A stretch of 64,000 nucleotides of DNA. Origin: Flavobacteriales bacterium. Lineage in GTDB: Bacteria; Bacteroidota; Bacteroidia; Flavobacteriales_D; Sanyastnellaceae. Location: positions 2,973 through 66,972 of the forward strand of contig JAWXBG010000223.1 of the NCBI GenBank assembly GCA_034439875.1. The letters run 5' to 3'. Made by a program: the position numbers and the translations under genes. This document shows positions 6,538 to 64,000 of the stretch, piece after piece; the first letter of the stretch is position 1, and the number at the start of each line of letters is the position of its first letter. The notes under the pieces were generated by a model. That model did no database searches. It saw nothing but the letters and a program-made list of their open reading frames with translations, and was not told the DNA's origin.

Positions 6538-6730
6538 ATACCGTATGGCTATCTACAATAGTCCAATTCCGTTTCACTCCATTAGCCTATAACAGCTACT
6601 CTAACGGCATTTACCACTTCATGTATATAAACCCGAATCATTCGATGGAGATATCGGAGTTCATCGGCCGTGTTATGTATTCCCGCAGCGCATTACCCTC
6701 AGGTTATTCCAATGCGTACTGTAGGATGGA
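6538..6730 (+). repeat. composite S-P interspersed repeat unit (copy R1)
   Basis: The S hairpin module (about 6551-6598, inverted relative to copy 11068-11115), a linker and the P module (about 6623-6730) align by eye to 18625-18843, to the reverse complement of 11347-11516, and to 58642-58922. Confidence 0.85.
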
Positions 6731-6776
6731 ATATTTTATATTCAGAATTGGGGTAAAATCCTGTTGATATGGCGAA

Positions 6777-7004
6777 TTATGCCTGATCTCTCTTTTTGTA
6801 CAAATCCTTTATAACAAGGAAAACTGCCAAGTAGGCCAGAGTGAAGAATGCAGAATAAGCAAGAGAATAATCTTTGCCTTGATATTCATATTCACCAGCC
6901 CCGTATCGCATAAAGCGGTCGAAAAGCTTGGTAGAAAGGAGATAACTCACAGTGAAAAGCACTGGTGCTATACTCAGATAGATGATGGTAAATTTTTTGC
7001 TCAT
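6777..7004 (-). CDS. small two-TM membrane protein (hypothetical)
   Basis: A 75-aa ORF with two hydrophobic segments. Its start overlaps the yggS stop by 4 nt, which suggests translational coupling in the serC-serA-DUF1015-yggS operon. Confidence 0.5.
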   Translation of the reverse strand: MSKKFTIIYLSIAPVLFTVSYLLSTKLFDRFMRYGAGEYEYQGKDYSLAYSAFFTLAYLAVFLVIKDLYKKRDQA

Positions 7005-10935: not shown

Positions 10936-11067
10936 AGTCGTATTTTATGATTCGGTCGCGAAGTTATACCAATGCCACAAATAAATTATACCTATGTTAT
11001 ACCCATTCTGCTTATTAAATTGTCCAAACTATTTTATAAACATGAAGTTGTAAATACTGTGGGAGTG

Positions 11068-11174
11068 GCTGTTATAGACCAATGAAGTGGAACGGAATTG
11101 GACTATTACAGATACATAAACGGTGTTACTTGATAAATGGTCCATCCTGCAAGGCGCATTGGAAGTATTTTGAA
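11068..11174 (-). repeat. S hairpin module plus distal arm of a P module (copy R2, left part)
   Basis: 11068-11115 is the cleanest S copy (CTGTTATAG.CCAAT-13 nt-ATTGG.CTATTACAG hairpin). 11129-11174 matches the distal end of P in reverse orientation and stops at the TTGAA target duplication of the inserted MITE. Confidence 0.85.
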
Positions 11175-11346
11175 CCCAGAATACGCATTGGCATTCGCTA
11201 TGAAGTGCTACACCCCACAGATAGCAAGTGCTCTCGCCAGATTATTATTAGATAGTGTATATTCATACATCAAGAATAAGAATCGAGAAAGTGCTTGATA
11301 TCAAAGGGGGTTAGCGCAGCAATAGATTTCCAATATGGATTCTGGG
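11175..11346 (+). mobile_element. 172-bp MITE-like element, copy 1 (nested in a P module)
   Basis: Its ends are CCCAGAATACGCATTGG and CCAATATGGATTCTGGG. It is flanked by direct TTGAA at 11170-11174 and 11347-11351, and aligns full-length with 18844-19015 and 29231-29402. Confidence 0.85.
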
Positions 11347-11516
11347 TTGAAAGTAATGCGCTGCGGATTTACGAAGGAACAATGTAATAACTCGACCATT
11401 GAATTCCCTGGTCTCCATCGAATGATTTGGGTTTATGTGCATGCATCGGTAGGTGCCGTTAGACCTAGCTGTTATAGACCGATAGAGTGAAACGGTATTG
11501 GACTAATGCAGATTCA
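11347..11516 (-). repeat. P module (proximal part), linker and S module (copy R2, right part)
   Basis: Its reverse complement aligns with 6551-6700 and 18651-18800. The S end overlaps the last codons and the stop of the DUF4476 gene. Confidence 0.85.
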
Positions 11517-12234
11517 AGCTCACACGCGCTGATTCTCTATTGACCTTGAGAATAAAAGCGTGGAGCAACTCCGCGCGGTCGTCCAAATCATAAATAGCTG
11601 AAGAAAAACGACTCAAGACTTTCAGTTTGTTTTCTTCAGCATCCAAACGAAGAAGACAAGTGAAGAGTTGTTCAACTTTGAGGCAGCTCATCACGTCTTT
11701 TTGGAGCAGTTTTGTGAGCTTTTGAGACTCAAATAGGGAGTTGTCGACGTCTTCCAACCACTCTTCAAATTCTTCATCAGACAATGGGTTTTCACAACCC
11801 AGCTTGCCTTCGTAATAAACACTTATTTCTGAAATCACCGCTGTTGAGTCAAATGGGACATTTTGCACATTGTTTCTGGCAACACTTTCTGCTGAAAATT
11901 GAAGTTTTGGAACCCCTTTCATTATTTGAACGAAATAGTCGGAGCGGGTATTGGGCTTTAAAGTGATCCACTGCGAAAGGCTAGAATATTTGCCGTTCAC
12001 AAATTCAAACTTAATTTCTGTTTTACCCGCCTCAAGCCCTTGGAGAGTAATTGAATTGCAATAAAAATTATTGACAACTAAAGCACCAATATGCAGTTTG
12101 AAAGAGCAACTATCCGGAGCAGAAATATTCAAAGCAGCCATTTGGGAAGATGCCGCGAAAGTGAGCTTTAAAATGACGACAAGTGATATAAGCAGTTTCT
12201 TTTTCATTTCGTTTTTTATCTTTTCGGTTGTCAC
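11503..12234 (-). CDS. DUF4476 domain-containing secreted protein
   Basis: It has a signal peptide (MKKKLLISLVVILKLTFAASSQ) and a C-terminal region resembling DUF4476 (C.NP.SDEEFEEW...FESQKL...). The alternative ATG start at 12207 is at least as likely as the GTG at 12234. Confidence 0.65.
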   Translation of the reverse strand: MTTEKIKNEMKKKLLISLVVILKLTFAASSQMAALNISAPDSCSFKLHIGALVVNNFYCNSITLQGLEAGKTEIKFEFVNGKYSSLSQWITLKPNTRSDYFVQIMKGVPKLQFSAESVARNNVQNVPFDSTAVISEISVYYEGKLGCENPLSDEEFEEWLEDVDNSLFESQKLTKLLQKDVMSCLKVEQLFTCLLRLDAEENKLKVLSRFSSAIYDLDDRAELLHAFILKVNRESARVSLNLH

Positions 12235-18624: not shown

Positions 18625-18843
18625 AGATTCCCCCGATTTATACCGTTTAGGTATCTGTAATAGTCCAATACCGTTCCACTCCAATAGCCTAGAACAGCTA
18701 TTCAAAAGCATTGACCACTTCAAGCATACAAACCCGAATCACGCGAAGGAGATATTGGAATTCATTGGTCGTGTTATGTCTTCCCGCAGCGCATTGCCCT
18801 CAAAATTCTTCCAATGCGCAATGCGGGATAGACCATTTATTAA
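18625..18843 (+). repeat. composite S-P interspersed repeat unit (copy R3)
   Basis: It starts right after the M23 stop codon. The S module is at about 18651-18700 and the P module at about 18722-18843, with a 15-bp-stem hairpin at 18782-18828. It aligns with the copies at 6.5, 11.4 and 58.8 kb. Confidence 0.85.
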
Positions 18844-19015: not shown

Positions 19016-19036
19016 ATTAAGGAACAGTGTTATTAT

Positions 19037-23662: not shown

Positions 23663-23902
23663 TTACTTCTTAACAGGAGCAGCTTTCTTAGCAGCGGCCT
23701 TTTTAGGAGCAGCTTTTTTCTTAGTCGCTTTTTTAGCGGCTTTCTTAGGAGCTGCCTTTTTAGTGGCTTTCTTTTTAGTAGCTTTTTTAGCTGCTTTCTT
23801 AGGAGCTGCTTTTTTAGCTGACTTCTTAGCTGCTTTTTTAGGAGCTGCTTTTTTAGCTGCTTTCTTAGGAGCTGCTTTTTTTGTTGCTTTTTTTACTGCC
23901 AT
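23663..23902 (-). CDS. histone H1-like lysine/alanine-rich DNA-binding protein
   Basis: A 79-aa protein made almost entirely of KKAAPKKAAKKA repeats. It has its own terminator, and the coding DNA is a tandem repeat array. Confidence 0.7.
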   Translation of the reverse strand: MAVKKATKKAAPKKAAKKAAPKKAAKKSAKKAAPKKAAKKATKKKATKKAAPKKAAKKATKKKAAPKKAAAKKAAPVKK

Positions 23903-24869: not shown

Positions 24870-26948
24870 ATGTACACAATGCTTTCAGGCAATAGTCGCC
24901 ATCGAAAGGGCTTAGTATTTTATCGCAGGATGAGTCTGATTAGCGCACTTATTGTGGTGTTGTCTGGTCTTGTCTACTCATTGGTAGTTGGACCTGAGCT
25001 TGAATTTATATGGGATAGGATTCTTGTGGTACTAATTTGCCTATTGGTCTATTCGATTGGAAAAAAAGAAACGAGTCTTGATAGATATTCACTTTTAGTA
25101 TATGCTGTTTTTTATTTTGTGATGATACACTCAGTGGTTTTGACTGCTAAAGGGGATTTCAATGTATATTATTCTGTTGGATCCATAATCATCGTGCAGA
25201 TATATGCAATATGTTTCAGGAGATGGCCACAAGCTTGGACTTTTTTGGGAGTTTGGTTGGTTATGTTGTTATCGGGTCTTCAATATTCTTCTTTACTCTC
25301 GGATAGTGATCTTTTATTCTCATCAATAGTGGTAATTCTGATAGCAGCGATGTCAGCAGTATTTGCATTTGGAAAGGACAGGTACATCTCTGATATTAAA
25401 TTTAGACAAAAGATGCTCACAGCGTTGGTCAATAAAACGGAGAATTCTGTTATTATGACCGACATGGCGGGTTACATATTGGATGCCAATGATAGAACAT
25501 GCGAAATTTTCGGTTTTCCATTTGAGGAACTTGTAGGCAAGGATTTTTCTGTATTGCGCGATAAGGCTCTTAATGAAGAAGAAGTCCAATTTGGATTGAG
25601 TCAATTGAAAAGGGATAAATTTTGGAATAGCGAAGTAAGAATGCTTCGAAAGGATGGTTCATCGTTTCATGCCTATATTTCTATTAGTATGCTTAAATCG
25701 TCTGACGTAGGAATTCTTGTTTATAGAGTGCGCGATATAACTGTGACAAAGAATTTTGAGCAGGAACTTATTCAGGCCAGAGAAGAAGCCGAAGAAGCTG
25801 TAAAGGCAAAAGGAAATTTTCTTGCCACGATGAGTCATGAAATTCGTACTCCACTCAATGGTGTAATAGGAACGGCAAGTTTGTTGGAGCGCACAGCACT
25901 TCAAACTGAACAGAAAGATTACGTGCAGACAATTCTCAATAGCAGTCAAAGTCTATTGGTATTGCTCAACGATATTTTGGATTTTTCTAAAATAGAATCT
26001 GGCAAGATGCAATTGAAACCCATTGCTTGCGATTTGAGAAATGAAGTTCTTTCAGTTTCAGAATTGTTGCGTCCACACGCCGTATCAAAAAATTTGAAAT
26101 TCGCGGTAGACATAGACAAGGACATACCTGAACAAGTGGTGGTAGACACCATGCGCTTGAAACAGGTATTACTCAACCTTCTTGGGAATGCTATAAAGTT
26201 TACGGATAAAGGTTCTGTTCAATTGTCGTGTAGCATTGTAAGACGGTTGAAAGAAGAAATCGAGTTGAAATTTATCGTTTCAGATACAGGCTTGGGTATT
26301 TCTCAGGATGAGTTGAGTCTTTTGTTTCAATCCTTTTCTCAAGTACATCAAAGTGCCAATAGAAGGTATGGAGGAACAGGGTTGGGTCTTGCCATCAGCA
26401 AAGATCTCGCAGAATTGATGGGTGGGAATATTTCGGTTGAATCAAAAGTTGGGGAAGGTTCAACCTTTCAATTTACCATTTTGGTCAAATCAGCCGAAGG
26501 GCAAATCAGCACCATTAAGGAATTAGAACAGATCGAACTTACGGAGGAAATGCTTCGAATTCTTCCGACTTTAAATATAGCCGTAGCAGAAGACAACAGA
26601 ATTAATAGCGACGTAATTGTTTTTATGCTTCAGAAGCTAGGGGTAGAGCCGGACAGAGCTTACAACGGATTAGAATTAATCGAATTGCTCAGCACCAAAA
26701 GCTATGATATCATTTTGATGGATATATATATGCCGGAATTGGATGGTCTTCGAGCTACAAAAATTATCAGAAAGGAACTAAAACTAAATCCTTACATAAT
26801 TGCTATAACCGCAAATTCGAGTCCGCAAGACCGGGTATTATGTCAAGAAGCGGGAATGCAAGCCTTTGTTTCAAAACCGTTCGTTTACTCCCATTTGGAA
26901 AAAGTCCTCGCAGAGTACCTAAATTCTGAGGTAAACACCCGTATATAG
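24870..26948 (+). CDS. hybrid sensor histidine kinase/response regulator with PAS domain
   Basis: It has an N-terminal multi-TM region and a PAS-like segment. Catalytic motifs are intact: H-box MSHEIRTPLNGVIG, N box LLGNAIKFT, G boxes DTGLGI and GGTGLGLAISK, and a receiver with DIILMDIYMPELDG. Confidence 0.9.
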   Translation: MYTMLSGNSRHRKGLVFYRRMSLISALIVVLSGLVYSLVVGPELEFIWDRILVVLICLLVYSIGKKETSLDRYSLLVYAVFYFVMIHSVVLTAKGDFNVYYSVGSIIIVQIYAICFRRWPQAWTFLGVWLVMLLSGLQYSSLLSDSDLLFSSIVVILIAAMSAVFAFGKDRYISDIKFRQKMLTALVNKTENSVIMTDMAGYILDANDRTCEIFGFPFEELVGKDFSVLRDKALNEEEVQFGLSQLKRDKFWNSEVRMLRKDGSSFHAYISISMLKSSDVGILVYRVRDITVTKNFEQELIQAREEAEEAVKAKGNFLATMSHEIRTPLNGVIGTASLLERTALQTEQKDYVQTILNSSQSLLVLLNDILDFSKIESGKMQLKPIACDLRNEVLSVSELLRPHAVSKNLKFAVDIDKDIPEQVVVDTMRLKQVLLNLLGNAIKFTDKGSVQLSCSIVRRLKEEIELKFIVSDTGLGISQDELSLLFQSFSQVHQSANRRYGGTGLGLAISKDLAELMGGNISVESKVGEGSTFQFTILVKSAEGQISTIKELEQIELTEEMLRILPTLNIAVAEDNRINSDVIVFMLQKLGVEPDRAYNGLELIELLSTKSYDIILMDIYMPELDGLRATKIIRKELKLNPYIIAITANSSPQDRVLCQEAGMQAFVSKPFVYSHLEKVLAEYLNSEVNTRI

Positions 26949-27075: not shown

Positions 27076-29187
27076 TTGTCTCTTACGAAATCATATTTGT
27101 TCTTACTTCTGAGTTTAGCGTGTGTAGCTATCTCTGGGGTTTATTTTTTAATAAGAACAAACCAAGATGACGATCTGACCAACAAAATAACCCTCAGCAC
27201 CAGACAAAAGTCTACTACTCTGGAGCTCGCCGACATGTTGCGAGAGTTTTCGGACAAATCTGAAGGTAATGAAAACATCAAACAGGAGATTGATGAGATT
27301 GAAGTGATCCGCAAAAAATGGTCGAACGCACAAAAGGCTTTCGTAAACGGCAGCGATTTATTCAAAATTTCAACGTCTAAAAGCGAAGAATCAAATTCCA
27401 TTGTCAACCAACTTTCGCCTATATACATTCGCATCGGCGATCAATTGCACAATCTTTCACTCGAAAATGTAAATTCTAATGCTGAATTAGAAAGGAACCT
27501 GCGCCCATCATTAAAGCAATATGCGGAACTAGTGAATGATCTTTCATTGCAATGGGTAAAGGAACAAGAGCGAGAAAGACAAGTTTCATTTATTGTTCTT
27601 TTCATGCTCGTTGGCATTACATGTGTGCTCATTGTTGTAGGTTTCCTTTTGCTCATCAGACCATATATCAAATGGGCAAAACTGGCTAATAAGGATTCCG
27701 ATGCAATGGCCCTTCGATTAGAATCGGAGCGCAAGCAAAAAATTCAGCTTATGGAAGATCTCAATTTGCAGTTGAGAACTCCATTATCGGCTATCATAGG
27801 TACCGCAGAACTGATGGCGAAATCCGAGATGGATCCACGTCAGCAGGAAAGTGTGCGCTCCGTTTTGAGCAGTGCATCGAGTATTATAAATGTCTTAGAC
27901 GACCTTGTCGACCATTCGGCCATTGAAAATGGACTTATTCAAATGCAAAAGACTCGCTTCAATCTGCATGAGAATATGGAGCAGGTGCTAGAGTTGATTA
28001 AACCACTTTTGAAAAACCAAAGAACAACTGTTTCTTTTTATGTTGGTCAAGGTGTACCCGCATGGATACATCAAGATGAAAAGCGTATTCGGCAAGTGCT
28101 GCTCAATATCCTTGGCGATGTGATTAAGTCCGATTCAAATGCTAGTTTAGTATGCTCAGTCGAACTTATTCACCAGACAGAAGAGTTGGCTCAGTTGAAG
28201 TATTGTTTATCCGGGGTTGACGTAGAAATCGCAGACCAATACTCAAAATTGCAGAGGACTACAGAAGGTGTCACAGCACTGGGTCGCGAGTTGACGGCAA
28301 GAATCATTTTTGATTTAGGTGGCAGGGTTTGGAGTGAAACGGGCAAGGATGGAAGGGGAGTGATTTGTTTTACTGTAATTGGCGAAGTATCAACACTTCA
28401 GAATTTGCGTCAAGACCGAGATTTGACCGGCATAAAGGCATTGGTGATCGACGAAGATAAAACAAATTTGAAAGTTCTCATTCGTCAATTGAGTACGTGG
28501 GGAATTCAGTCTACGCCATTTAATAGCCTCGATCTGGTGGAAGAAATCATGGCAAGTGTCCTCAAGTTTGATTTGTGCATTATGAATGTTGATCAAGAAG
28601 GAGGAGAGGGAATAAAGATGGCAGAAAGGCTTGTTCAGCTATCCGGAAATAAGCTTCCGGTTATAGCGCTTACGTCAAAAGGAGGTTCCCTTGTTCAGAC
28701 CAATTCAAAACTGTTAACTACATTCTTGACAAGGCCTGTGAAACAAATAAGGCTTTTTGAAACCATTGCCAGAGTGCTCGATGTGAGTGAAACGGAATTG
28801 ATGAAGGTGAAACCAGGTAAGAGTGCTGATCCTTATGCTTTAAATGTGATTATAGCGCAAGACAATGATCTTCATCGTGCTGTTGCCGAGCGCACGTTGC
28901 AGCTATTGGGGCATAAATGTGAGAACGCATTCAACATGGATGAACTTCAAGATAAACTTTCGAATAAACACTATGATTTAATTATTGTAGGTGCAGATGA
29001 GAAGAAGTGGAATTCATTTAGTCTTACCGGAAGGGTGAGCAAATTAAATAGCAAAGAGGAAACAGTAGTGATAGGTATTGCCCAAGAAACAGTCAATAAA
29101 AGGGATGAATTTGATGATTTACTCACAGGAAAATTTACCGGGGATATCCTAGAAGAGAAAATCAAAGCTTGGTTTGAATTCGAATAA
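27076..29187 (+). CDS. degenerate hybrid histidine-kinase paralogue (pseudokinase with two pseudo-receiver domains)
   Basis: It has TM, periplasmic helical region, TM, then a DHp-like LNLQLRTPLSAIIG in which Leu replaces the phospho-acceptor His. The N box is LGDVIKS and the G boxes are lost. Both receiver-like domains lack the acceptor Asp (CIMNVDQ, LIIVGAD). The start codon is TTG. Confidence 0.75.
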   Translation: MSLTKSYLFLLLSLACVAISGVYFLIRTNQDDDLTNKITLSTRQKSTTLELADMLREFSDKSEGNENIKQEIDEIEVIRKKWSNAQKAFVNGSDLFKISTSKSEESNSIVNQLSPIYIRIGDQLHNLSLENVNSNAELERNLRPSLKQYAELVNDLSLQWVKEQERERQVSFIVLFMLVGITCVLIVVGFLLLIRPYIKWAKLANKDSDAMALRLESERKQKIQLMEDLNLQLRTPLSAIIGTAELMAKSEMDPRQQESVRSVLSSASSIINVLDDLVDHSAIENGLIQMQKTRFNLHENMEQVLELIKPLLKNQRTTVSFYVGQGVPAWIHQDEKRIRQVLLNILGDVIKSDSNASLVCSVELIHQTEELAQLKYCLSGVDVEIADQYSKLQRTTEGVTALGRELTARIIFDLGGRVWSETGKDGRGVICFTVIGEVSTLQNLRQDRDLTGIKALVIDEDKTNLKVLIRQLSTWGIQSTPFNSLDLVEEIMASVLKFDLCIMNVDQEGGEGIKMAERLVQLSGNKLPVIALTSKGGSLVQTNSKLLTTFLTRPVKQIRLFETIARVLDVSETELMKVKPGKSADPYALNVIIAQDNDLHRAVAERTLQLLGHKCENAFNMDELQDKLSNKHYDLIIVGADEKKWNSFSLTGRVSKLNSKEETVVIGIAQETVNKRDEFDDLLTGKFTGDILEEKIKAWFEFE

Positions 29188-29230
29188 TCCGAAATTCAAG
29201 TCATTTCTTGTTTTGAGAGGTGCCCTTAAA

Positions 29231-29402
29231 CCCAGAATCCGCATTGGGATTCGCTATGAAGTAGTAAACCCCACAGATAACAAGTGCTCTCGCCAGATTT
29301 TTATTTGATGGTGTATATTTATACATCAAGAATAAAAATCGAGAAAGTGCTTGATACCAAAGTGGGTTAGCGCTGCAATAGATTTCCAATGCGGATTCTT
29401 GG
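29231..29402 (+). mobile_element. 172-bp MITE-like element, copy 3 (solo, in unique DNA)
   Basis: Its ends are CCCAGAATCCGCATTGG and CCAATGCGGATTCTTGG. It is flanked by direct TTAAA at 29226-29230 and 29403-29407, between convergent genes. Confidence 0.88.
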
Positions 29403-29420
29403 TTAAAATTCCATTCCCAT

Positions 29421-30443
29421 TTATTTGATACCTCGAGCATTCAGCGCACGGTGATATTCGGCAGCATATTGTTGGTGCTGACTGTAACTGATCGAAAAAT
29501 TGTGATAGCCAGAGAAATCGGGTTTGGCGCACATGAATATATAGTCATGTGATTGTGGTTGTAAAACGGCTTCAAGAAATTCCTTTCCTACAAAGGCAAT
29601 CGGCCCTGGTGGTAGACCATCGATGAGGTAAGTGTTGTAGCGAGAATCTATTGCAATTTGGCCTGTAACTCTTTGCACACCATCGCCCCCAGCACCAAAG
29701 ACAGCGGTAGGATCCGCTTGAAGTCTGGTACCATTTTTCAAGCGATTTAAATATAACCCTGCGATTTTAGGCGCTTCTTCCATCTTCACTGTTTCTCCTT
29801 TTACAATGGATGCAAGAATATATGTTTTAATGGGATCTAGATTTTGTAACTGCGCCATTTTTTTACGATCATCATTCCAAAATGTAATGTAGTTTTTTTT
29901 CATTTTCCCGATGAATTCTTCGGGCGTTATCGTCCAGAATTCCTCGTAAGTATTGGCGAAGAAAATGCACGCAAGGATGTCTTCGTTTAGCGCCAACTCA
30001 GGATCGGCTGTTAGATTTCGAATGGCCATCAAAAACTCAATAGAGTCTGGTCTCAGAATTTTACCGAGTTTACCAGCGAGTTGTTCCAGACTTTTTTCTG
30101 CCCCAAATCTAACTTTCACAGGACTTTGATTTCCAATGCGAAACATATTTACGATTTGCTGATTACTAGCACCTCGTTTTATTTCATAGCGCCCTGGTTT
30201 TGTAAACTTCGAAAACCGTTTTATGGTACAAGTGATTTTAAAGGAATGGGTGTTTTGAATGATAGAATCAGCCTCGAGTATTGCTGTGAGTGCATCTACT
30301 TCCATTGACTGATCTATGAATACAACTTTTGAAACTCCGGTAAATGCGGTGTTGTGTTTGAAAATCTGGCGAAATACCCAATATCCGGCAATCGCGCTGA
30401 TTAAGACAATAATCACCGAAAGGGCCAGCAGTTTTTTCCTCAT
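29421..30443 (-). CDS. mltG: endolytic murein transglycosylase MltG (YceG-like)
   Basis: It has an N-terminal TM anchor and YceG motifs (ASIVKGE, YNTYLIDGLPPGPIA). Confidence 0.9.
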   Translation of the reverse strand: MRKKLLALSVIIVLISAIAGYWVFRQIFKHNTAFTGVSKVVFIDQSMEVDALTAILEADSIIQNTHSFKITCTIKRFSKFTKPGRYEIKRGASNQQIVNMFRIGNQSPVKVRFGAEKSLEQLAGKLGKILRPDSIEFLMAIRNLTADPELALNEDILACIFFANTYEEFWTITPEEFIGKMKKNYITFWNDDRKKMAQLQNLDPIKTYILASIVKGETVKMEEAPKIAGLYLNRLKNGTRLQADPTAVFGAGGDGVQRVTGQIAIDSRYNTYLIDGLPPGPIAFVGKEFLEAVLQPQSHDYIFMCAKPDFSGYHNFSISYSQHQQYAAEYHRALNARGIK

Positions 30444-31302: not shown

Positions 31303-31373
31303 CTTGCAAAAATGCAACTATTACCAATGTTAATTAAAAATGGTCCAAAATATTTTGTGCGTTTGCAGTGGTA

Positions 31374-31449
31374 GATGCCGTTGTGATTTATGTTTAGTTG
31401 AATGTAGCCAAACGAAATTGGACTATAGCGTTAATACAAACGGTATAGT
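31374..31449. repeat. diverged S-type repeat copy (R5a)
   Basis: GCCGTT..AAACGAAATTGGACTATAGCG..AAACGGTATAG matches the linker, the right half of S and the AAACGGTAT tail seen in other copies. The left half is degraded. Confidence 0.55.
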
Positions 31450-31513
31450 ACCAATTCTGCCGATAAAATAGTGCGACCTAATTTATAATCATCAAGTGTT
31501 AAATGCCGTTAAA

Positions 31514-31611
31514 CGCAGAATCCGCATTGGGGGTCGTGTAAAGTTGCTGTTATAGGATAATGGAGTGAAACGAAATTGGACTATTACAGATAACCGAACG
31601 GTATAAGATTC
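31514..31611. repeat. solo MITE-end-like segment fused to an S hairpin module (R5b)
   Basis: CGCAGAATCCGCATTGGGGG (31514-31533) matches the MITE left end. It is followed at 31546-31592 by a full S module and the AACGGTATAAGATTC tail. Confidence 0.75.
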
Positions 31612-32000
31612 TTAAGAAAATCTCTAAAAAACTCTTTCACATTTCCACCAATGCATAAAATATAGGCATTTACAATTAACGTATTCAGGCCAAATTGAGT
31701 CGACTGGTTCACTAAATCTCAGTGGCAGAGCATCCACCATTGATATTTTGCGATTCTCTTGCAGGTTTGGGGGTAATCACAATCGTAATATGTGGAAGAT
31801 GGGCTGTTTTACTTGATTTTATTAGTCTTTCCCCTGCTTTTTGAATACAACGGGAGTGGTCCAAGAGCTTGGAAATGGCCGTCTTTTACGAAATCCTTGA
31901 TATGACAATGGCCGAAATGCCTTCCCTTTTTGAATAGAGGTCTTACGCAATGGGCCTCTGTGCTTATTTTTGCTCGGAAGAGTAAATCAAAACCTATATC

Positions 32001-57670: not shown

Positions 57671-58611
57671 AAAGTATATTCAGGACCATCCTTGAACCCA
57701 ATGAATGGAGCGAAAAAGTATCATTTGGTGATGGAATTTTTTTGATCGGTTCTTGTTTCGCAGAAAAAATGGGTGTGCGTTTTCAGCGATACAAATTCGA
57801 TATCTGCTTGAATCCTTTTGGAATTTTGTTTAATCCGGAGTCAATTGCAACGGCTCTGGAAATGATAATTCAAGGAAAACAATTTTCTATAGATGATCTC
57901 GACTTTGATGGAAGTTTATACCACAGTTTTTATCATCACGGACGGTTCTCAGGCAAAGAACCACAATCTGTAATTGACGAGATTAATAGGGATATTCTGA
58001 TTGGAAAAACTTACCTAGAAAAATCTCGTTTTCTTCTTGTCACATTTGGCTCAGCATGGGTTTATGAAGAAAAAGTAAAGCAACGTATTGTTGCTAATTG
58101 CCACAAATTCCCAAATCAGAATTTTCTGAAGCGACTTTTGACTCACGATGAAATAGTCAATTCTTGGAATCAATTGCTAGGAAAACTGAGGAACTTCAAT
58201 CCTGATGTTCGCGTTGTATTTTCAGTAAGCCCGGTGAGATATTTGAAAGATGGTTTTGCAGAAAATCAATTGTCGAAAAGTCACCTTCTGATAGCAGCAA
58301 ATCAACTTTCGGAGCATGGGGGAGTGCAATACTTCCCGTCTTATGAAATCTTCATGGACGATCTTCGTGATTACAGATTTTGTAGTCAAGATATGGTGCA
58401 TCCAAGTGCTGATGCGGTTCAGTATATATGGGAAAAGCTTTTGCACTCCGCTATGGACTATCAAACCACCCAATTACTTGACTCACTTGAGAAGTACTTG
58501 CTATTGGCAGAACATCGGTCTATGCATGAATCGGAAGAGGAAAAAATGCTGAGGTTGGATAAATCGAAGCGTGGTATAGAGATGCTGATTTCGGGATATC
58601 GACAAGGTTGA
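57667..58611 (+). CDS. GSCFA domain protein
   Basis: The eponymous motif is present (IFLIGSCFAEKMG). It overlaps the GT9 gene by 4 nt. Confidence 0.85.
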   Translation: MKSIFRTILEPNEWSEKVSFGDGIFLIGSCFAEKMGVRFQRYKFDICLNPFGILFNPESIATALEMIIQGKQFSIDDLDFDGSLYHSFYHHGRFSGKEPQSVIDEINRDILIGKTYLEKSRFLLVTFGSAWVYEEKVKQRIVANCHKFPNQNFLKRLLTHDEIVNSWNQLLGKLRNFNPDVRVVFSVSPVRYLKDGFAENQLSKSHLLIAANQLSEHGGVQYFPSYEIFMDDLRDYRFCSQDMVHPSADAVQYIWEKLLHSAMDYQTTQLLDSLEKYLLLAEHRSMHESEEEKMLRLDKSKRGIEMLISGYRQG

Positions 58612-58641
58612 AGTAGTAATACCGATCTTTTACCAATGGTT

Positions 58642-58922
58642 CTTAATAAACGTTCCATACTACATTGCGCATTGGAAGTTTGTTTTGGGCAATGCGCTGC
58701 AGGATATTGCATGCATGAAATGGTTAATGTCGTTTAGAGTGCCTGTAACAGGCCATTGAAGTGAAACTTTATTGGACTATTGCAGATACATAAACCCGAA
58801 TCACGCCATGGAGATATCGGAATTCATAGGTCGAACAATTACTTTGTTCCATCGTGTAGATTCGAGAATCCCGCATAGCATTAACCTCAAGATGCTTCCA
58901 ATGCGCAATGCGGGATAAATTG
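58642..58922. repeat. rearranged repeat cluster: internally deleted P (inverted), S hairpin, full P (copy R6)
   Basis: 58642-58715 matches the distal and proximal ends of P in reverse orientation, with about 75 bp missing. 58741-58789 is an S module and 58789-58922 is a P module in forward orientation. Confidence 0.8.
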
Positions 58923-59015
58923 GTTTAGCACTGCTTCCGGTTAAAGAATATTAAGTGCCTCACTAAACATCTTGCATGCTCTAGATTGATGGCTAGAAAT
59001 TCTCCAACACGAAAA

Positions 59016-62057: not shown

Positions 62058-64000
62058 CTATCTCATCAGAAGGATCTGACCAGATATTTCGGCAGCTTCT
62101 TTCGATACACCCTGGTATTTTATTACGTATGTATACACTCCATCTTGAATGAAGTATTCGCCATTTTTGGTATTACCGGTCCATGCTTGATTGAGGTCTT
62201 CGCTGCGGAAAACAACATCTCCCCAACGACTGAAAATGATGATTTCATATTCAAGAATTCCCATTCCATATACTTGGAACACATCGTTAATTCCATCACC
62301 ATCTGGAGTAAATGCATTTGGTACATATAATTCCAAAGGCGGATACACGACGCTGTAGCCATAGTCGTAACAGCCAATGTTATTATTCACATATAGCTCT
62401 ACCTGGTACTGAGCCAGACCATCAAATGTGTGAATAGGATTTGCAATGTCGCTAGTAATTCCGTCACCAAAATTCCAAGTATAATTGCAGTCTTCACAAT
62501 CGTCCATTACATCAGCCACAAACTGCACTTCAGTTTCTGAAAGATATGTGAGCGTAAATCCGGCATTTACATCTTGAACATCAACTTCTACATTCTCTGT
62601 TTCAATTTGATTACATTGGTCAGAAACAGACACTTCATATAAAGCAAGAGTTCCTGGGCTTACTTGTACGTTTTGGTCAGAACTACTTAACATAGGTCCG
62701 CTCCAGTCGTAAACCAAAGCTCCGGCACCACCTGAGCCTTCAACGCTGAGTGTAATTTGAGAGCCAAGGCAAATACTTGTATCCTGACTAACTACTACCT
62801 CTATAGCAGGATTATCGATGAACAGAGTAACGGTTGACTGATCGCTCAATCCACAAATGTCAGTTACCAAAAGTTCAATAGATGTTGTTTCATCGGCCTG
62901 ATATTCGAGAACATCACCACTTCCGATTACAACTCCATTCGCAGTCCATTCATATTCAAATGGAGCCTCACCCAAATTCACTGTACTTGTGAATTGTCCT
63001 ACCTCTACGCATGTTACCGTCACATCAGGACTAAGACTGAGTTCCGGGGCCACATTTACAATTTCGATATCTACTTCTCCTGTGGCAGAAGAATTACAGT
63101 TGTCCGTTACGTTTAGCACTACAGTAACCGACTGGCTCGAAGAATATGCTAGAGTTTCATTACTTCCAACATTAGATCCGTTTACCGTCCAAACGTAGTT
63201 GTAAGATCCAGGACCGCTACCACCCGTTACTTCAGGATCGATGAAGAAAACATCCGTACAAGTACCCGTAAATGGACCTGGCATTAATAAATCCATTGGA
63301 ATGGGTTCAACATTGATATTGATGATTGAATTGTAGTAGCCTCCGCAGTTGTCCGAAATGTACAATTGAATTTGGAAATCATTCGATGCCGTGAAAGAAT
63401 ATGTATCAGCAGAACCGAGATAATTCCAGTTTATGTCGTACCAGGTAAACCAAAATGGTTCCTGACCAAATTCTACAAGTGGATCGAGGGTCACAAAAGC
63501 TCCACAAGAAACAGTTGTATCAAGAGGCATTGTTACTTGCATAGGAGTAATTGATGAGGTGGCCGTTACGGTATGAGTTGTGATTTCACCGCAGCCATCT
63601 TCAACGCTTATAGTTACTTCACCTACGCCATTCCATGGACCATACCACAATGTGTTTTGCCATCCCCAAAGATTATTTCCTTCATCATTACTCCAGAACC
63701 AAGCGCTGTAGTTTCCATCACCACCGGTAGCGGTAGCTGTAAGTTGTAAACCAAAGCAATCAACTACAAAGTCGCCTTGATCTATCAACACACTAAATGG
63801 CGGGAATTCTGCCACCTCAATAATGATATTTGCATCGTCGGAAGGCATACCGCATGTATCGCTTACCATTACATTGTAAGTTGTACTAATCAGTGGTGAT
63901 ACTGTGATCATTTGGGAAGTCTCTCCCGTACTCCAGTCAAAGCTGTAAACACCATATCCACCAGAAATAATCGGCTCAATGTCGATAATGGCTCCATCGC
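62058..64000 (-). CDS. large T9SS type-B sorting domain adhesin with repeated Ig-like modules (N-terminal part outside the window)
   Basis: The frame stays open to the window edge. It has the C-terminal CHU_C motif (YVPNAFTPDGDGINDVF...FSRWGDVVF...AWTG). Upstream are at least six modules of about 80-90 aa, each with GG.G.Y.Y.W and V.D.CG motifs. Confidence 0.85.
   Translation of the reverse strand, partial: DGAIIDIEPIISGGYGVYSFDWSTGETSQMITVSPLISTTYNVMVSDTCGMPSDDANIIIEVAEFPPFSVLIDQGDFVVDCFGLQLTATATGGDGNYSAWFWSNDEGNNLWGWQNTLWYGPWNGVGEVTISVEDGCGEITTHTVTATSSITPMQVTMPLDTTVSCGAFVTLDPLVEFGQEPFWFTWYDINWNYLGSADTYSFTASNDFQIQLYISDNCGGYYNSIININVEPIPMDLLMPGPFTGTCTDVFFIDPEVTGGSGPGSYNYVWTVNGSNVGSNETLAYSSSQSVTVVLNVTDNCNSSATGEVDIEIVNVAPELSLSPDVTVTCVEVGQFTSTVNLGEAPFEYEWTANGVVIGSGDVLEYQADETTSIELLVTDICGLSDQSTVTLFIDNPAIEVVVSQDTSICLGSQITLSVEGSGGAGALVYDWSGPMLSSSDQNVQVSPGTLALYEVSVSDQCNQIETENVEVDVQDVNAGFTLTYLSETEVQFVADVMDDCEDCNYTWNFGDGITSDIANPIHTFDGLAQYQVELYVNNNIGCYDYGYSVVYPPLELYVPNAFTPDGDGINDVFQVYGMGILEYEIIIFSRWGDVVFRSEDLNQAWTGNTKNGEYFIQDGVYTYVIKYQGVSKEAAEISGQILLMR

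Follow-up and report, generated by a model that had tools for sequence, protein, structure and literature searches.

Element A, a 172-bp repeat found in three full copies in the window (the whole 64,000-nucleotide stretch of DNA analysed here), is very probably a MITE that targets TTNAA, duplicates 5 bp on insertion and is mobilised in trans by a DDE-type transposase. The data directly support the ends of the element, the duplication, the target motif, the occupation of many unrelated sites and the lack of A in a syntenic relative, and we infer the trans-acting transposase. Element A is thus a real and ordinary kind of bacterial mobile DNA that is itself new, and we know of no named element with its ends.

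The preliminary description of this DNA had proposed three segments of 172 bp in the same orientation, roughly 85-90% identical, with terminal inverted repeats of ~17 nt and an interior able to fold back on itself, and each of these points was borne out by measurement. Alignment and a profile HMM agree on the position and orientation of the three segments, whose pairwise identity is 88.3-90.6%. When the three copies were aligned together with their flanks, 172 columns were common to all, with a mean column identity of 89%, and the similarity ended abruptly at both edges. The features of A in the window are listed below.

11175-11346, forward strand: element A copy 1, 172 bp (alignment, profile HMM)
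11170-11174 and 11347-11351: pentamers of copy 1, TTGAA/TTGAA
18844-19015, forward strand: element A copy 2, 172 bp (alignment, profile HMM)
18839-18843 and 19016-19020: pentamers of copy 2, ATTAA/ATTAA, off-motif yet the same on both sides
29231-29402, forward strand: element A copy 3, MITE of 172 bp (alignment; profile HMM, E = 1.9e-59)
29231-29247 and 29386-29402: terminal inverted repeats of copy 3, CCCAGAATCCGCATTGG and CCAATGCGGATTCTTGG, respectively
29226-29230 (left) and 29403-29407 (right): target-site duplication of copy 3, TTAAA
31514-31530, forward strand: solo left end of A, a truncated copy, CGCAGAATCCGCATTGG, which adjoins a fragment of repeat B (end-motif match)
31509-31513: TTAAA directly before the solo left end

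A 16-nt end motif, with up to three mismatches allowed, was matched seven times in the window against a mean of 0.56 in shuffled sequence, and none of 100 shuffles reached seven; the matches are the six ends of the three copies and the solo left end. The profile HMM, built from 33 copies of A and run on the window, recovered exactly the three full copies. The element is an imperfect palindrome, with 68-70% identity to its own reverse complement, and for the folding energy of its fold-back z is −9.6 when folded as RNA and −6.0 when folded as DNA. The left flank of the solo end (TGCCGTTAAA) is similar to the left flank of copy 3 (TGCCCTTAAA), a similarity that may be due to chance.

Beyond the window, we scanned metagenomes with a 24-nt consensus from the right half of A. 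This pattern is missing from the four copies then known, so that every match represents a new copy, and 89 stretches matched. Pairing of facing ends in the matched loci gave 72 distinct insertion sites on microbial-mat contigs, told apart by their flanks, and all 72 carry the 17-nt terminal inverted repeat at both ends with no more than three mismatches. The elements fall into size classes of 172, 84-86, 55, 37, 270-423 and 514-592 bp, the commonest being the 172-bp class with ~30 distinct sites; the 514-592-bp class accounts for 26 sites and the 270-423-bp class for a few. Five copies of A lie in ~77 kb of contiguous genome (the window together with loci L001 and L127), or about one per 15 kb, a density that by extrapolation would put the number per genome at a few hundred. 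At the 57 sites with enough flanking sequence, 52 insertions are intergenic, and the intergenic ones lie between convergent gene pairs more often than between divergent pairs (19 versus 7). A search of the genome collection with an 18-nt end motif, a pattern too short for that collection, returned only 20 single chance matches in unrelated taxa. Among viral contigs a 16-mer gave 10 chance matches and the specific 24-mer none, and blastn of A against plasmid and phage collections gave no match.

The target site was characterized at 71 sites, with a null model in which the right pentamers were shuffled among sites 100,000 times. At 37 of the 71 sites the same pentamer stands on the left and on the right, compared with 13.1 ± 3.0 in the shuffles, of which the highest reached 28. 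Inverted identity of the pentamers, which is the expectation if TTNAA merely belonged to the inverted repeat, was found at 6 sites versus 11.8 expected. The logo of the left flank reads T (86%), T (94%), N, A (97%), A (89%) and that of the right flank is alike; on either side, conservation of the TTNAA bases outside the end ranges from 86 to 100% by position. Off-motif left pentamers occur at 16 sites, and five of these have an exact copy on the right (ATTAA, ATAAA twice, ATAAT and ATTAT). The identity of the pentamers, the low inverted identity and the off-motif repeats together are what a 5-bp duplication made on insertion at TTNAA would leave behind, as had been proposed from the three window copies alone. 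The pentamers around these three had been described as perfectly duplicated and different from copy to copy; the duplication is indeed perfect, but the difference has to be qualified, all of them being variants of the one motif TTNAA. T, T, A and A are constant because they form the target motif, and the copy-specific part of the pentamer is the middle base only, plus the occasional off-motif pentamer. Flanking direct repeats and conserved ends recur at the other sites, and the repeat stops at the pentamer rather than extending into a longer conserved unit: beyond it the flank logos of the 71 sites carry no signal, and direct repeats just outside it are at chance level only.

Perfect duplications flank 22 of 33 copies of the 172-bp class, whose mean divergence from the consensus is 4.4%, and this proportion is about that expected from neutral decay of ten bases at such a divergence. 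Mismatches between the left and right pentamers favour the middle base, with six of eight single mismatches among the 172-bp copies and 16 of 48 TTNAA/TTNAA sites affected, an excess greater than neutral decay predicts and one that simple decay does not explain. Flank exchange through recombination between copies is one possible cause. Assembly chimeras were considered as a source of the discordant duplications and rejected, since concordance stays at ~50% regardless of whether one, two or three assemblies contain the site.

Element A is associated with a second family, repeat B, whose consensus of ~418 bp is made up of ~50-nt hairpin modules; the arms of these are ATCCCGCAGCGCATT and AATGCGCAATGCGGGAT. 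The two are nested in both directions, in the window and in loci L038-L125, and the other repeat families reported in the window are pieces of B. The ends of A and the hairpin arms of B have the 8-mer CGCATTGG in common, which occurs 11 times in the window versus 1.6 expected. The following B sequences were located in the window.

6542-6781, forward strand: B fragment upstream of recA (B profile)
10977-11527 (10977-11174 and 11347-11527), reverse strand: B around copy 1 of A (nhmmer with the B profile; direct-repeat families D4, D8 and D9)
18628-18838, forward strand: B fragment directly upstream of copy 2 of A (repeat families, B profile)
31334-31612, reverse strand: B fragment overlapping the solo A end (repeat families, B profile)
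58610-58925, reverse strand: largest B copy of the window and candidate paralogous 'empty site' for copy 1 of A (B profile)

One B hairpin module carries copy 1 of A in its loop. If A and one TTGAA are removed, the loop plus arm measures 24 nt, and the uninterrupted paralogue at 58668-58691 is also 24 nt. Judged by this match in length, the B hairpin paralogue is consistent with an 'empty site' for an insertion that added A and 5 bp.

The nesting also accounts for the largest size class, in which the 514-592-bp elements are A carrying B (~418 bp). In these composites B is placed after position 36 of A, after position 74 or in place of positions 37-70, and the composite with 37-70 replaced would be the expected product of recombination between the other two. 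Variants of intermediate size contain A and B sequence only, and no gene remnant was found in them. In the 86-bp derivative A 1-33 is fused to A 120-172, with the microhomology AGTGCT at the junction, and the same junction recurs at no fewer than three loci. Examples of the derivatives are given here by locus.

L037 1083-1168; L039 3430-3515; L065 4126-4211: 86-bp deletion derivative
L106 12068-12104: minimal 37-bp element, two ends only
L078 8070-8418; L081 7541-7889; L043 13173-13521: tandem dimers of A

The tandem dimers share a single pentamer between their members (TTNAA-A-TTNAA-A-TTNAA), and private mutations are common to both members of each dimer, which argues for an origin by local duplication, for example by slippage between the 5-bp repeats, and not by two separate insertions. 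The L043 dimer is found as a monomer in two other samples (L038 and L061), a difference to which either such slippage or assembly collapse could have given rise.

The window is bacterial chromosome of ~40% G+C, and its housekeeping genes include recA, serC, RNase Y and mltG. Proteins identical to those of the window are entered at NCBI under 'Flavobacteriales bacterium' (MAG). A 174-kb ENA contig and several JGI metagenome contigs carry the same sequence, and 'microbial mat metagenome' is the label of one ENA contig that matches. Copies 1-3 are all intergenic; the neighbouring genes are convergent for copies 2 and 3, those around copy 3 being the following.

27076-29187, forward strand: hybrid histidine kinase, 3' end facing copy 3
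29421-30443, reverse strand: MltG, 3' end facing copy 3

Among 5.8 billion proteins the closest MltG is 55% identical and is encoded on contig L137, and the uncultured, mat-dwelling Flavobacteriales lineage of the host is a deep one. L137 holds 16 kb in the gene order of the window (with MltG at 10001-11023 of L137), and A, B and CGCATTGG are all absent from these syntenic 16 kb. The spacer between MltG and the kinase, where copy 3 lies, is 29 nt in L137 versus 233 nt in the window, and another spacer is 263 nt versus 683 nt. The synteny of L137 without A supports a lineage-specific insertion, at a divergence too great for comparison at the level of single bases. At a density of about one per 15 kb, A probably accounts for much of the difference in intergenic length from L137, the nearest relative found. 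Copies 1-3 are present in all strains sampled (L126, L130 and L131), and when the flanks of every site were joined and searched in all loci, only differences in tandem copy number and no precise empty site were found.

Some further features of the window were observed. The kinase gene next to copy 3 is one of two adjacent hybrid histidine kinase/response-regulator genes on one strand (24870-26948 and 27076-29187), an arrangement that is kept in L137. A 79-aa lysine/alanine-rich ORF at 23663-23902 on the reverse strand is made of (A/P)KKAAKK repeats, looks like a histone-H1-like basic protein and accounts for the tandem 12-15-nt repeats at 23675-23894. For the protein at the right edge (62058-63911), no record with that start was found.

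The stability of the predicted fold and the preference for sites between convergent genes, given above, would both be in keeping with structured ncRNAs or transcription-attenuating hairpins under selection and not mobile DNA. However, among 32 distinct copies compensatory changes are absent from all 56 predicted pairs, and the covariation term is unfavourable. With Rfam 15 no match at gathering score was obtained for the whole window, and in E-value mode A gave only two miRNA-hairpin matches, of 18-21 bits against thresholds of 63-95, or about a quarter of what is needed. A T-run of the terminator type is absent after the hairpin, and the target duplications would be left unexplained. We therefore regard selection for such an RNA or attenuator as extremely improbable. 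With no Rfam match and no compensatory changes, A is not a structured RNA, and its fold is the legacy of a palindromic master sequence, not something that selection maintains; the preliminary description had noted that a covariance-model match to a known ncRNA family would point to a different explanation, and as none was found the MITE reading stands.

The palindromic character of A also brings to mind REP/REPIN-like units, spread together with B by a RAYT-type tyrosine (HUH) transposase and not by a DDE enzyme. The identity of A to its own reverse complement, the 8-mer common to its ends and the B arms, and the intergenic, clustered, nested and tandem arrangement of the A/B units would fit such an origin. 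IS200/IS605-type and REP mobilisation leave no target duplication behind, whereas the 5-bp duplication of A is solid, including its variable middle base and its off-motif pentamers, and the ends of A are sharply defined. No RAYT gene was found among the family-scanned or Pfam-labelled genes near the copies. We consider this origin very unlikely, and the evidence favours a MITE moved by a DDE-type transposase.

The parent of this MITE was sought in the window and in the loci around the other copies. The preliminary description had reported no transposase in the window and had called the element non-autonomous, and in this it was right: family scans and the Pfam labels of the ORFs agree that the window encodes none, A has no gene of its own, and the 72 independent insertion sites strengthen the reading of a non-autonomous MITE. 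A profile HMM of the IS1380 family, built from 119 family transposases and run on all ORFs of 0.94 Mb of related loci, detected no IS1380-type transposase (PF13701/PF01609) in these contigs, tblastn with ISEcp1 found no transposase in the related loci, and neither did a search for multi-copy ORFs. Inverted-repeat pairs of 0.8-3.5 kb with these ends enclosing an ORF were absent from the related contigs, and a full-text literature search for TTNAA with transposition returned nothing relevant. A pair of terminal inverted repeats 2461 bp apart (L099) and solo ends in L100 and L112 were examined as possible IS elements and rejected, since what they enclose are ordinary genes, namely those for a glycosyltransferase, L31 and a HAD hydrolase, besides a 375-aa ORF that is unassigned.

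A link to IS1380-type elements had been raised as speculation, and we compared A with three annotated members of the family, from which six real ends were read. The ends of ISEcp1 are CCTAGATTCTACGT and CCTAAATTCCACGT, those of IS1247 are CCCACATTTCCCAA and CCTGCATTCCCCAA, and IS1678 has the end CCTGAATAATTCAT and a 5-bp duplication, GATAG. Over its first 14 nt, A (CCCAGAATCCGCAT) matches either end of ISEcp1 at 9/14, the two ends of IS1247 at 9/14 and 8/14, and IS1678 at 6/14. Averaged over the six ends, the match is 7.8, compared with 5.1 ± 1.0 when CC was fixed and the rest shuffled (P = 0.008). As in A, the ends of the three elements start with CC(C/T) and follow the pattern CCYR.A.TYC.C, and IS1678 has in common with A a target duplication of 5 bp. 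ISfinder gives a target duplication of 4-5 bp for the IS1380 family, and we know of no member described with a fixed TTNAA target. Unlike IS1380 elements, A carries no transposase, and none was found nearby. The IS1380-like ends and the 5-bp duplication of IS1678 make an IS1380-type parent the best guess, albeit an unproven one, so that of the suggested link the likeness of the ends and of the duplication has held while the cognate transposase was not found. From these sequence comparisons, the IS1380 family, which comprises bacterial relatives of piggyBac, is tentatively put forward as the most likely source of A. An IS1380 element of Labilibaculum (Bacteroidota) was rejected as a relative, as its left end, CCGCATTCCACGT, is not A-like; its contig stops before the right end.

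Element A could also be a MITE whose parent is a DDE IS of another family that makes 5-bp duplications, which is the chief competing reading and one that we think rather unlikely but worth serious consideration. Candidates are IS4-related elements, IS1634 or IS701/ISAba11 for example, and Tn3-type elements. The ends of Tn3 start with GGGG, unlike those of A, which start with CCC as IS1380-family ends do, and the resemblance to three real IS1380 members above the shuffled control likewise weighs against another family. In its favour, no IS1380-type transposase is encoded in the 0.94 Mb around the copies, the ends of A match IS1380 members at only 6-9 of 14 positions, and IS1634-family elements are known in Bacteroidota (Cardinium ISCca6, PMC9769881). 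An IS1380-type parent is still the one that we favour.

A narrower proposal concerns piggyBac, whose terminal repeat starts with CCCTAGAA. Like A, piggyBac has CCC...GGG termini and a fixed, AT-rich, palindrome-like target that is duplicated on insertion, TTAA compared with TTNAA. It differs in that its duplication is of 4 bp instead of 5, and in being autonomous and eukaryotic; A has neither the TTAA target nor the 4-bp duplication by which piggyBac is recognised. The IS1380 transposases have been taken as the prokaryotic outgroup of piggyBac (PMC10813416), which integrates at TTAA and excises seamlessly (PMC7351741), and seamless excision is a feature of piggyBac that is only a possibility for A. 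The CCC...GGG termini and TTNAA target of A would fit the IS1380/piggyBac superfamily. It is doubtful, though conceivable, that A is the footprint of a piggyBac-like transposase of the IS1380 superfamily, with CCC...GGG termini, a strict TTNAA target, a 5-nt stagger and possibly seamless excision.

Compared with known MITEs, A is short and non-coding (its derivatives span 37-592 bp), with conserved terminal inverted repeats, a target duplication and many unrelated loci, and no cognate autonomous IS with its ends was found in the window or in the 0.94 Mb of related contigs. Of the sequence-level attributes of a MITE it thus lacks only two, a known parent IS and an empty site precise to the base. 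The bcr1 repeat of the Bacillus cereus group is of similar kind, being ~155 bp, non-coding and mobile-element-like, with an AT-rich direct pentamer, TTTAT, at its flanks, but its sequence and host are unrelated to those of A. MITEs are abundant in Bacteroidota, where they have been catalogued in silico by the tens of thousands (PMC11602168). MITECca01 of a Cardinium endosymbiont (Bacteroidota), which is derived from ISCca4 of the IS982 family, has 169 copies (PMC9769881). Such bacterial MITEs, MITECca01 included, are like A in being short, non-coding, mostly intergenic, nested in mobile elements and lineage-specific, with inverted ends, and MITECca01 also has more than 100 copies per genome, a number that for A is extrapolated. 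The two differ in the sequence of their ends, in the length of the duplication and in the TTNAA target of A, which is much stricter, and MITECca01 has the parent ISCca4 whereas no parent IS was found for A.

Taken together, these data suggest the following mechanism. A DDE-type transposase encoded elsewhere in the genome would recognise the 17-22-nt inverted ends (CCCAGAATCCGCATTGG), cut a TTNAA target with a 5-nt stagger and join element A to it, and repair of the gaps would leave TTNAA on both sides of the element. In an uncultured mat Flavobacteriales bacterium A would in this way have spread to about one copy per 15 kb, mostly between genes, and its spread would have given deletion derivatives, tandem dimers and composites with the hairpin-rich repeat B, the copies now being in presumed neutral decay.

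As MITEs are common in Bacteroidota, the existence of A is unsurprising, and what goes above the routine is only its strict TTNAA target, its piggyBac-like termini and the composite architecture of A and B. Metagenome contigs were seen to end inside or just before A copies (the ends of L002, 19585-19622, and of L132, 2168-2213), and contigs ending inside copies indicate that the repeat, with its nested A/B composites and tandem arrays, fragments short-read assemblies of this lineage. As a specific marker, element A also identifies a deep, uncultured lineage of Flavobacteriales in microbial mats. If the piggyBac-like footprint were true, A would be a prokaryotic counterpart of the TTAA specificity of piggyBac and a clue to its origin, and if the transposase of A were found, a link between the bacterial branch of the IS1380/piggyBac superfamily and the eukaryotic one could be put to the test.
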